A stretch of 64,000 nt of DNA, taken from the NCBI GenBank assembly GCA_000182565.2, contig KQ257452.1; one strand, 5' to 3'. This DNA comes from Spizellomyces punctatus DAOM BR117. Lineage: Eukaryota. A program made the position numbers and the translations under genes. Numbering within the stretch: the first letter of the stretch is position 1; each line of letters opens with the position of its first letter. The notes below the pieces were generated by a model. That model saw only the letters and a list, made by a program, of their open reading frames with translations. It did no database searches and had not been told where the DNA came from. Below, one piece after another: positions 11,241-30,837 of the stretch.

Positions 11241-12449
11241 ACCTTGTCCCTTCCGCATATTATTTATTTATTACACATGGTGGGCAGCTTGTGAATTGCA
11301 TGCACAGGACTGTCCCTACATAATACATACACATCTTTGGGCATGCTATCTCTGTATTGCAGACGAAACTGTTCAAACTAGGCCTCACGTAGTGTAGAGG
11401 TGACAGAAACTGGCACTAGCTACTACACCAGGGAATAAACCGGCGACAACCGGTTCGGAAATGCTAACTAACTACTACTAGGCAATTATACACGCAATAC
11501 GTAACGGTTGGTTCTAACCGGATAATTGCCCACCACCACACGCGGTCCCTACTAGGCCTTGATCTGGAACTCTTGAATGGCATTGAAGCCAGACTCTTGC
11601 ATCCAGGAGCGAATCGACTGGGCAGCGTCACAAGCCAGAGGATTTTCAGTAACAAAGGCTTGGAGACTAAAACTGCATGTCAGCGAGATGACAGAAATGA
11701 CAAGATGCAATCAGTACATACCAACCAAGCTCAACAAATGTGGCAGCATAATAGCAGTTTTGTTAGCAGATCCGATTGGTTGCCGCTGGTTCTGATCACG
11801 GTTGTTGTCGGGCGGTCGAGGTCCTCGGCAACACCACATCGGCATTCTCATGATTGATGAGAGTTGGGCAGATGCTTGTGAGTCGAGGATGGGTAAAGAG
11901 GAAAGAGGGAAGAGACAGCTAAGGCCGCCCTTTTATAGACCTTCCACATGCGCCTCACCGCAATTTAAAAAAAAAACATTACATGCATGCCACACCAATC
12001 TGAGCGATAGAGGGGGTGCTGATTATGCGATATGACAATCCGGATAATATTGGTCCTAGTGCCATTTTCAATCACCTCCACACTTTGTAAGCAAACACCA
12101 CGTGATTGATGACTCAACGATCGACGATGCCTTTCCCCAAGCTCATTGCGTTTCCTTGCTCTTGATGACTTTGCTATCGGCACCGAGGAGAAAGGGCATC
12201 TGACAGTGGTATGTGCTCGAGTGGGATAGTTTTGCTCGACATAGAAACTCCAATGTCTTGTATCATCTCCTAAGTTGTTTGCATTTCGACTAGAGATCTC
12301 GCGATTTCCGTTTACTACTGGCACTACCAAGTACCGAAAAGCTTTGAGATCCCTGATACAGCAGAAGCAGTGCGAAGAGTGACCGGAGTATCTTTAGCCA
12401 CTTGGTTGTGTCTGTCACGCCGTCAACATCCATATCGTTGACTTCAACA

Positions 12450-25409: not shown

Positions 25410-25686
25410 NNNNNNNNNNNNNNNNNNNNNNNNNNNNNNNNNNNNNNNNNNNNNNNNNNNNNNNNNNNNNNNNNNNNNNNNNNNNNNNNNNNNNNNNNNN
25501 NNNNNNNNNNNNNNNNNNNNNNNNNNNNNNNNNNNNNNNNNNNNNNNNNNNNNNNNNNNNNNNNNNNNNNNNNNNNNNNNNNNNNNNNNNNNNNNNNNNN
25601 NNNNNNNNNNNNNNNNNNNNNNNNNNNNNNNNNNNNNNNNNNNNNNNNNNNNNNNNNNNNNNNNNNNNNNNNNNNNNNNNNNNNNN
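25410..25686. other. Assembly gap (N run)
   Basis: Continuous Ns. Confidence 1.
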
Positions 25687-27617: not shown

Positions 27618-28149
27618 TGTTTTGTCGAGTTGTTGAAGTTGTTGTTGATGATGTTGTTGTTGTTGTGACGAGCTTTGTTAGGTGCAAAATGGGACGAGGT
27701 GCATGTTCGTGCCTTTATATACGAAATGGGGACACCACATAAAAGGCCATGAAAACAATGGAATCATAGTGAAGCATATGCTCACCGTGAAATGGAATAT
27801 TGCCAACTGTGGCTGCTATATTATTTTTTGGTGGGGAAGGAAACAAACAACAGCCCATAATGGAGCGGGATAGTCTACTGCTACCTCAAATGTCTTGCAT
27901 ATCTTGCAAATGCGTGGCTTTACCGCCTTTGAATATCAAAATACTCACTGATTGAAAGCTCGTACTGCGGCCGAGGTGCCTATTTCAATCCTGTTGACAA
28001 GCTGTGAATGATTTCAAGCATTGGAAATGACATTATAATGTACAAAAGAAGAAGATCATATTGTGACAGATGTATTCAAACAGCCAACCCATTTCCCGCA
28101 CTCACCGTCCGCACCCTCCGACACCCATCCGTCCATCCACGCTTTCATA

Positions 28150-30269
28150 GTGCGGAGCCGATGGGTATTGGCACTAGTACAAAGATTCCAACCAATTTAA
28201 TCATAATTTTACTCGATTTAGACTCATGAACTATGGTTTGATTCAAAAAATCCTATGTAAGTCATCGTCCATTTTCCCAGGCTTTCATCTTTTTCTACAG
28301 ATATCATCATGCCACCAAAGAAGAAGCAAAAGCTCGAAAGGCTCGAAAAACTTGACAAACCTACTTGCTTACATACCTGCAACAAGACGTCCTTCACAAA
28401 GGCTTTCTTGCCTAATGAGACCTACCGGCAGCGTCTTCTAGATTACATCGCCATCATCCATCAACTCGCTGACCATGCTTCCCACGCTCTCAAATTCTAC
28501 ATCCTATATGCACCAACCTTTCCCACGGTAAATGAAGATACAATCGAAGCGATTCTCTATCTTCTCAACAAGGGGGAGGCTTGGCATCCAAGAAAGGAAG
28601 CAAAGAAGGCATGGCGGGATTGTTTGCTGCCATATGTTCAACGGTACTGCCAAATCATCGGCTTTGTTCACCCAAATCTACGAGGCGAGCAGCAATCAGT
28701 CAATTATCTGACAGCGAGTATGATGACAAATCTGAAGGTCAACGTCCAGGAACACTTCATGACGATGCTGCTCCGGTACATCAATCTGCGGCTCGATGTG
28801 AAGGGACAGAAGCAGCGACTGCCACTGAAAAGCGATGCGCGAAACGCTTTCTTTGCTCGTCTTCGCTACTTGAAGTCAATTTTCCTTTTTGATATCGTGC
28901 CCGAGTCGCTTGATGACTTGACTGCTGAAGAGAGTGAACTTCTAGAAGAGATTTGGTCCCTTAACATTCCCCTTTCTGACGACCAGCCACTCGCATATTC
29001 GGTTGCTGTAGACCCTCTCGCCTTCTTTCCTGCATACTGCAAACTCTCTGGGCTGTATGAACGACATGGCTTCCATCAGTTCAGCGCGATACCTCTGCGT
29101 CGCTCGCTCATCCAAAGCCATGTGCGGATCGACACCATCATCCTCTACTCTCACCTTCTTTGCATCACACGACGAGAAGCGGAAACTGTCGAAAAGGTCG
29201 ATTTATGGTTGCGCGTGTGCAACCTGCGGAACAAGGCTTTTCGGTCTCGCCGCGGTATGCAGTTTGAAGGCTCGGTCACGACGGATGGAACCTCGGTGTC
29301 TGTATACCTAAAGCACCCAGAAGCTGACAAGTATGGAAAGCGCAGCGGAGGGAAAAAGTCAGCAAACACGACGGAGGCAGAGGTTAAAGCACAATATGTG
29401 GAGAAAAACTTACCTGCTTGTCGAGCAGCAGAGAATGTTGTTGTTATCGACCCAAACAAGCGCGACATTCTCTACTGCCAAGACAGCAATGGTACAATGT
29501 TCCGTTACACCGCCAACCAGCGAGCCGTGGAGACTGGAAGCCGTCGATTTGCAAAAGAACGGCAGCAGATGAAGAAGGAAGCGGGAATGGACCTCATAGA
29601 ATCACGTATCCCTAGTCACAAGACAATGAACCTCATGGACTTCATGCGCTATCTCCTTGTTCGGCGCGCTGATTGGGATCGTCGCAAGGAATTCTACTCC
29701 ACCCTGCCCACACGCGATGGAAATGGCACTCCTTCATCAATCGGCAGCGAAGCGAATCAGACCTCATATCCAACATGCGCAACAAGTTTGGGAACTTTAC
29801 CGTTGTGATGGGTGATTGGAGCGACGCCGGTCGAACTGCGAGATTTCAGACCTCATCAAAGACAAAAGGCTGGCGCACCCTCTTTAAGCGGAACAGGATC
29901 AACTGCTTCCTTCTCGACGAGTACAAGACCTCATCTGTCTGCCCTCACTGTTCCTCTGGCGTTGAAAAAGGCTTCAAAACACGACCTCATTCAAGACCTT
30001 GGCGCCGTCGCGAAGGCAAGATTGAAAAAGTCCACGGATTGCTGGGTTGTACCAACCCTAACTGTTTACAGCAATCCTGGACGATGCGCTACTGGAACAG
30101 GGACACGCTGAGCACCTGCAACATGCTGATGATTGTGCAATCAATGTTGGATGGGCACTGTAGACCAGAAGTGTTCAGCAGGAGTGTTCCAGCCGTAGCT
30201 TAGATTGGTTAGATTAGGTTTTCCGAGCCGGTTGTCGCGCGGTTCAATCCCTGGTGCGGGTGTCCGCAC
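28150..30269 (+). mobile_element. Non-autonomous Fanzor1-carrying DNA transposon (Spu-1-like), ~2.12 kb, TA duplicated at both ends
   Basis: Left end TA|GTGCGGAGCCGATGGGTATTGGCACTAG; right end ...TCCGCAC|TA (inverted match); sole cargo is a TnpB-like RuvC ORF. Confidence 0.9.
28309..30203 (+). pseudogene. Fz1: Fanzor1 RNA-guided endonuclease (SpuFz1-like), ~631 aa if the 1-nt frameshift near 29700 is repaired
   Basis: TDGTSVSV, RuvC-I VIDPNKRD, VVMGDWS, LLDEYKTSSVCPHC, CTNPNC, RuvC-III WNRDTLS; two overlapping ORFs join at FYS|HPAHTRW. Confidence 0.9.
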
Positions 30270-30286
30270 TATGAAATCCTATTGTG
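30218..30286 (+). ncRNA. Fanzor omegaRNA: scaffold (internally deleted) followed by a flank-derived guide starting at 30272
   Basis: GTTTTCCGAGCCGGTTGTCGCGCGGTTCAATCCCTGGTGCGGGTG-TCCGCACTA lies just downstream of the Fanzor stop and runs to the element end; ends are approximate. Confidence 0.75.
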
Positions 30287-30837
30287 CAGTCGTAATTTCA
30301 ATGATGATCGTGCATGTGTAAGTACTAAGCCGCAATTGGGTTCCGATCGACACCACCCATCATCGCTTTCCATCTGTCCGTCCATTCTTCACTCGCACCT
30401 TGCGTCGAATAGTGTCAACAGTGCGAATCCTTTGGCAACTCTTTGATCAACTTGCTCTTGATGCCCGGGAAACTCACCTGGGCTATCTTGCATGAATTTG
30501 ATATACATTGGGTAAAGATCAATGAGGAGAATAACCATTTTCTAGAGCCCCCACCATCTTTTTCCTCAATAACCTGCCATACAGTGTTGCTCTTGTTTTT
30601 GTGTTTCTAAATCATCCTGTCCACCTTCATGTCTTTCATGTCTGTATTTGCGGTAAATACTCCATTAGATACAGCATAGACATGCTTCTACGTGGTGGTC
30701 AATTAACGATCTCGACGCGTTTTCTTGACACGCCCAAAGTCGCTGCCCCACACAAGTTGCAAGTTTCTTTTTTTTTGCTTCAAAACAAACGGACGGAATT
30801 TGAAAGCGCCTTACGAGATATTCTAAAGATATTCTTC

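Follow-up and report, generated by a model that had tools for sequence, protein, structure and literature searches.

Positions 28146-30286 of the window, by which we mean the whole 64,000-nt stretch of contig KQ257452.1 (assembly GCA_000182565.2) of Spizellomyces punctatus DAOM BR117 that was analysed, hold in this order a CATA motif, a 30-nt left inverted repeat, a Fanzor1 gene, an omegaRNA scaffold and a guide derived from the right flank (Table 1). Altogether, our results make it highly probable that this locus is a decaying copy of SPu-1, classed as a non-autonomous DNA transposon of this soil chytrid, which carries SpuFz1 (Fanzor1) and its omegaRNA. Descent from SPu-1 is evident in protein homology over the whole length, in the RuvC residues D383, N385, E541 and D606 together with a CxxC...CxxxxC zinc finger, in a CA that with the left 30-nt repeat gives CATA, and in a homologous omegaRNA scaffold once a 21-nt gap is allowed. 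The first report describes SPu-1 as an element of ~2,100 bp with one 633-aa open reading frame (ORF), 33-bp terminal inverted repeats and a putative TA target-site duplication, present in 17 full-length copies of which 9 are intact, and related to TnpB at about 15% identity (Bao & Jurka 2013, PMC3627910). In a later account, the element, there Spu-1, has 30-nt inverted repeats, the left one preceded by a conserved CA, and the DAOM BR117 genome has 42 Fz loci, 19 of them full-length, alongside 134 ghost loci that lack the ORF (Saito 2023, PMC10432273).

The Fanzor1 ORF opens at the ATG at 28309 (MPPKKKQKL...), and most of the homologous proteins listed begin MPP(K/N)K. It runs in two frames. 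Structures of SpuFz1 are known (PDB 8GKH and 9CEU-9CEZ), and Xu et al. (2024, PMC11423790) reported further ones. In phmmer searches against all PDB chains, the first part (residues 2-464) matches 8gkh_P, the S. punctatus Fanzor, at E 3.1e-270 and the second part matches the same chain at E 3.2e-102, with the Fanzor1 proteins of Parasitella and Guillardia ranking far below. The read-through protein, with an X placed at the frame break, has 631 aa and is 88.2% identical (554/628 aligned residues) to P0006, the 638-aa SpuFz1 protein in which every published residue stands at its published number, from which it differs by seven in-frame insertions or deletions of 1-2 residues each. All 16 published functional residues are kept, namely catalytic D383, N385, E541 and D606, the readers of the target-adjacent motif (TAM) R96, Q129, Q130, N133, R291 and Y345, and the RNA or DNA contacts W570, R414, R387, R531, H21 and T22. 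The codons aligned with D383, E541 and D606 are those for the D of IDPNKRD (29449-29451), the E of LLDEYKTS (29919-29921) and the D of WNRD (30102-30104), and the N385 codon lies at 29455-29457; the zinc finger (CPHC, 29940-29951; CTNPNC, 30048-30065) shares the second frame with E541 and D606. A search of a 5.8-billion-protein collection returned 43 homologues at E <= 1e-10, mostly named S. punctatus DAOM BR117; the best named ones are 88% identical over the full query, no partial match exceeds 91%, and there are dozens of paralogues at 80-90% identity.

SpuFz1 RNA is reported to be 88-90 nt long, comprising a 75-nt scaffold and a 14-15-nt guide, and its nucleotides are named in the cryo-EM structure (Saito 2023, PMC10432273). 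We tested the published names U5, C6, C7, U16-G20, G22, A29, C32, C34, U35, G37 and C40 and, further on, G70, A72, A75 and U76. With nucleotide 1 at 30218, all 15 names through C40 fit, the next best of 200 offsets reaching 8, and with a 21-nt gap before nucleotide 67 the remaining four fit as well (19/19); a 75-nt register that ends at 30271 with no gap fits 9/19, and the ungapped register starting at 30218 fits 16/19. In this register the scaffold consists of a 7-nt 5' tail, stem-loop 1 (30225-30245), a 6-nt linker (30246-30251) and a short stem-loop 2 (30252-30271), and the predicted fold (stem-loop 1 at nucleotides 8-28, linker at 29-34, then stem-loop 2) has the published architecture. 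The non-coding tail that contains the scaffold is rich in G+C (34/54) and stops at the right border. A 21-nt stretch of stem-loop 1 was not found in a full-text literature search, from which supplements were outside. An 11-nt end motif taken alone is within chance for 64 kb (8 of 100 shuffles gave at least two matches with at most one mismatch), and the SpuFz1 protein match (E 3e-270 and 3e-102) and the 19/19 omegaRNA fit are far beyond it.

The borders of the element are marked by a perfect 14-nt inverted repeat (28143-28156 with 30263-30276). On the left, the TA of CATA may be read as the first two bases of the left inverted repeat or, alternatively, as the putative target-site duplication, and three contigs of other copies (one in run X3, two in run X8) lose likeness at 28145-28147, which marks the left border. 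CATA is also the reported TAM of SpuFz1, with all of its bases required (Saito 2023, PMC10432273). On the right, the predicted flank-derived guide starts TGAAATCCTATTGTG at 30272 and the four bases that precede it in the occupied site are ACTA; as a consequence, the element-free allele, in which the CA of the left flank, TA and the right flank are joined, would be the only target. Elsewhere in the window, four sites resemble the guide target with three mismatches and none of them is preceded by CATA.

Most of this had been recognised in a sequence-only reading of the same DNA, made without database searches. Its inverted ends with CATA at 28146-28149, its RuvC Asp (29449), Glu (29919) and Asp (30102) with a zinc finger, and its GC-rich tail reaching the element border are all found where it put them. 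Its assignment to the SpuFz1 family agrees with the protein identity, its omegaRNA start near 30218 is the only register compatible with the published numbering, and its guide starting TGAAATCC, directed at the empty allele, is consistent with the ACTA of the occupied site. It had named a lack of RuvC/TnpB-type similarity, or other copies with different borders, as findings that would overturn it, and neither was encountered. Of the similarity to SpuFz1 and TnpB that it anticipated for a repaired protein, the SpuFz1 half was confirmed and the TnpB half was not reached by sequence; the word repaired hinted at the frameshift described below, while the broken ORF itself went unstated. Thus a Fanzor locus, its omegaRNA start, TAM and guide can be recognised from raw sequence alone.

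Table 1 Features of the SPu-1 copy (window positions).
Feature	Positions	Strand	Basis or remark
CATA	28146-28149	+	TAM of SpuFz1; conserved CA of left flank + TA
Left inverted repeat, 30 nt, intact	28148-28177	+	Aligned with both repeats of the ghost element
Fanzor1 ORF, first frame (WED/REC and RuvC-I)	28309-29699	+	Codons 1-463 and 2 bases of codon 464
Frameshift site, one base missing, TC/CAC	29699-29700	+	Other copies: extra G, Ser-His
Fanzor1 ORF, second frame	29700-30203	+	167 codons and TAG stop (30201-30203)
omegaRNA scaffold, 54 nt	30218-30271	+	Register of published nucleotides, fold, likeness to ghost
Junction of 21-nt internal deletion	30262-30263	+	Canonical omegaRNA nucleotides 46-66 = inner 21 nt of right repeat
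Right inverted repeat remnant, 9/30 nt	30263-30271	+	Inverted-repeat match, end alignment, omegaRNA register
Predicted 15-nt guide TGAAATCCTATTGTG	30272-30286	+	From right flank; published 75-nt scaffold + 14-15-nt guide, fitted register

The copy carries two small lesions, of which the first is a 21-nt deletion in the right end that the sequence-only reading had not mentioned. In an alignment of the left end, the reverse complement of the right end and both ends of a ghost element in the same window (see below), 21 columns are absent from the right end of the main copy alone. The deletion shortens the scaffold from 75 to 54 nt and leaves 9 of the 30 nt of the right inverted repeat, where an active locus would have a right 30-nt repeat matching the left one; it is because of this truncation that the ends pair over 9-14 nt as opposed to the published 30 nt. 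A contig of run X1 that follows the left repeat to 28177 continues with 14 letters equal to the reverse complement of 30249-30262, so that a complete repeat running directly into the 5' arm of stem 2 exists in one or more other copies. In canonical numbering the missing nucleotides are 46-66, wholly within C40-G70, the stem-2 segment that was reported to be dispensable, a finding that led to a 52-nt trimmed scaffold (Saito 2023, PMC10432273, Fig. 4d-f). With two thirds of the right inverted repeat gone from its inner side, the copy can probably no longer be mobilised by any factor acting on these repeats.

The second lesion is a single missing base after 29699, which splits the ORF upstream of E541, the zinc finger and D606. 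The first frame reads ...EFYS TLP... and, in place of the uninterrupted ORF of ~630-638 codons that an active locus would have, ends at 29808 after 499 codons; the second frame reads HPAHTRWKW... from 29700. An extra G after 29699 is present in one contig of run X8, and three X1 contigs with loose ends at 29696 read TCG CAT CCT. Decay is common in the SPu-1 family, judging from the published counts and from several named paralogues with frameshifted tails. The annotated paralogues P0002, P0007 and P0011 end in a tail (...CWVVPTLTV.SKPGRCATG...) that resembles the zinc-finger region read out of frame (29809-30111 in the third frame of the window), and annotation appears to have taken frameshifted copies for proteins in these cases.

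Several results weigh against the model of a decaying SPu-1 copy, and some of them concern the lesions themselves. Both the frameshift and the 21-nt deletion are known from one assembly, and the full-length canonical right end is a reconstruction that draws on the left repeat, the ghost, one loose end of 14 letters and the published numbering. Moreover, a near-identical X3 contig (565 nt, 29506-30067, two other letters) is one letter longer than the window somewhere within its span, which may reflect an assembly error here or a frame-restoring base in the X3 strain. The gene could accordingly be an intact and active SpuFz1 gene. Its frameshift would then come from faulty assembly or sequencing, or be peculiar to the assembled isolate, and the 21-nt gap might have the same origin. 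The missing base adjoins a short C run, and the second frame is open for 167 codons with all catalytic and zinc-finger residues kept, as expected if the lesion is recent or artefactual. However, the same X3 contig spans 29699 without the G of the other copies (0 of depth 5.76), several named paralogues have frameshifted tails of their own, decay is common in the published counts (19 of 42 loci full-length in Saito 2023; 9 of 17 full-length copies intact in Bao & Jurka 2013), and the 21-nt deletion is a second, independent lesion in the same copy. We therefore consider an intact gene improbable.

The other results of this kind concern the link to TnpB and the RNA. Pfam searches with both ORF parts gave no TnpB/OrfB match at E <= 1, nor did they return PF26935.1, a precomputed label on most of the homologues. 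A 13-sequence Fanzor1 profile reached, in the PDB, only the three sets of Fanzor1 structures and no TnpB or Cas12 chain at E <= 10; its ferritin matches (E 0.005-0.19) are spurious. Membership of TnpB/OrfB was thus found neither by sequence profile nor through the solved TnpB chains, and because these searches did not reach TnpB, we take the relationship of this locus to TnpB from the published structures. The fold of the 54-nt scaffold is weak (z = -1.75; 12 of 200 shuffles fold at least as well), and an Rfam search of 27900-30500 matched no omegaRNA family and gave a sub-threshold snoRNA as its sole match (18.9 bits, gathering threshold 41). Finally, the sole RNA-library contig matched (256 nt, from X11, a root metagenome RNA-seq library in which DNA carry-over is possible) falls in the ORF and outside the omegaRNA.

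The decaying copy belongs to a large set of relatives. Contigs with 80-100% likeness to the element number 464 in run X1, 30 in X3 and 353 in X8; among the contigs listed from four runs, none spans the whole element, and the bin 30275-30320 is uncovered in all four, with flanks of 46-47 nt that are too short to judge the presence of the locus. The X11 contig matches 28448-28702 without differences, where paralogues differ by at least 10%, a hint that an environmental sample contains this copy or an identical twin, which is perhaps also transcribed there. The sequence-only reading had thought this copy perhaps undescribed; very probably it is one of the 42 Fz loci counted in S. punctatus DAOM BR117. 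The same relatives bear on the idea of domestication, in which the host would have taken over the RNA-guided nuclease as a gene of its own and the locus would have ceased to belong to a mobile element. The listing of reading frames in the element contains no transposase between the inverted repeats, and Saito 2023 (PMC10432273) likewise reports none in any Spu-1 element and raises functions beyond transposon homing. Yet the copy is frameshifted and still has the end repeat and the CATA junction that mark a multi-copy family; it has dozens of 80-90% identical paralogues, and 16 kb from it there is an ORF-less relative that shares its ends, all of which makes domestication extremely unlikely.

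As published work on the family has shown, RNA is transcribed across the right end, its scaffold binds SpuFz1, the 14-15 nt beyond the right end act as the guide, and the complex cuts double-stranded DNA in which 5'-CATA stands beside the guide match. With CATA at the left junction and the guide TGAAATCCTATTGTG at the right one, TAM and target of the main copy would be joined only in the element-free allele, and the occupied allele with its ACTA would be spared from cleavage. The frameshifted copy would by itself make no active nuclease, because the protein is truncated before E541, the zinc finger and D606. By analogy to ORF-less ghosts, its 54-nt scaffold could still load SpuFz1 from intact paralogues, since the deletion falls in the dispensable C40-G70 segment. 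More tentatively, we speculate that broken Fz copies keep a transcribed, SpuFz1-loaded omegaRNA and, similarly to ghosts, add guides to the Fanzor repertoire, although we hold this to be a possibility and not the expectation.

A second, ORF-less SPu-1-like element of 696 bp lies on the minus strand at 11390-12085, 16 kb from the main copy. In a BLAST of the main element against its own window, 30208-30256 matches 11472-11426 (85.7% over 49 nt, E 1e-7) and 28141-28187 matches 12092-12046 (74%). Its inverted ends are ~30 nt long; its own two repeats differ at 5/30 positions, and its left repeat differs from that of the main copy at 8/30. The right end resembles an omegaRNA and has a good predicted fold (z = -3.81), with the predicted guide CGTGAGGCCTAGTTT at 11389-11375, and the left junction is CAAA, not CATA. 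The interior contains a TATA-like box and short ORFs, three of which gave no Pfam match above cut-offs. By its sequence, this element fits a ghost Spu-1 element.

The region has some further features. A 14-nt inverted repeat (86% complementary; 28187-28200 and 30200-30213) lies inside the ends at unequal distances from them and may be a subterminal motif of the element or chance. A direct repeat shared by 28051-28146 on the left flank and 30273-30370 on the right is attributed to chance, since 28 of 500 dinucleotide shuffles and 1 of 84 other window segments score at least as high. A candidate 5' untranslated region intron (GT...AG at ~28258-28299) with an upstream exon is unsupported, and none of the homologues listed has such an N-terminal extension. 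Four flanking ORFs gave no Pfam match above cut-offs. Between 25200 and 25800 the composition profile shows what looks like an A+T-rich dip, which an assembly gap of 277 N at 25410-25686 accounts for.

SPu-1 is the founding Fanzor element (2013), and later work on SpuFz1 (2023, 2024) has covered its biochemistry, its structure and its use as a genome editor, with its genomic copies counted. Family, mechanism and copies being known, the main copy is nothing new in kind, and what is specific to it are its two small lesions. It resembles SPu-1/SpuFz1 in the CA and 30-nt left repeat, a single ORF starting MPPKKK, a scaffold after the stop and a guide from the right flank, as well as in 88.2% protein identity, 16/16 functional residues and 19/19 omegaRNA nucleotides; it differs in the base missing after 29699, the seven in-frame insertions or deletions, the 54-nt scaffold and the 9-nt right repeat. 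By published comparison, TnpB and its omegaRNA in IS200/IS605 elements such as ISDra2 follow the same logic: the nuclease is of RuvC type, the guide comes from the right flank and the TAM stands at the left junction, so that in both systems only the element-free allele would be cut. In contrast to TnpB, SpuFz1 is described as having larger REC and RuvC domains and an omegaRNA without a pseudoknot (Saito 2023, PMC10432273), and unlike IS200/IS605 the main copy has no TnpA-like transposase.

If the frameshift is real, the main copy would also be like a ghost Spu-1 element in that it supplies omegaRNA only and relies on SpuFz1 from elsewhere. It and the ghost at 11390-12085 have similar ends and a similar stem-loop 1; however, the main copy holds a nearly full-length Fz gene and a left repeat of the Fz-locus type, and its stem 2 is shortened whereas that of the ghost is full length. 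The closest parallel to this shortened stem is the engineered 52-nt SpuFz1 scaffold, in which stem-loop 1, the A29-C34 linker and the base of stem 2 (U35, G37, G70, A72, A75) are likewise kept; the 54 nt of the main copy, in contrast, arose naturally via the 21-nt deletion. The deletion is thus a natural counterpart of the engineered minimal scaffold, and in the main copy the gene and the transposon end may both be lost earlier than the RNA. Were such a copy indeed to contribute a guide and nothing else, nature would have reached the 'mini-omegaRNA' design by itself.

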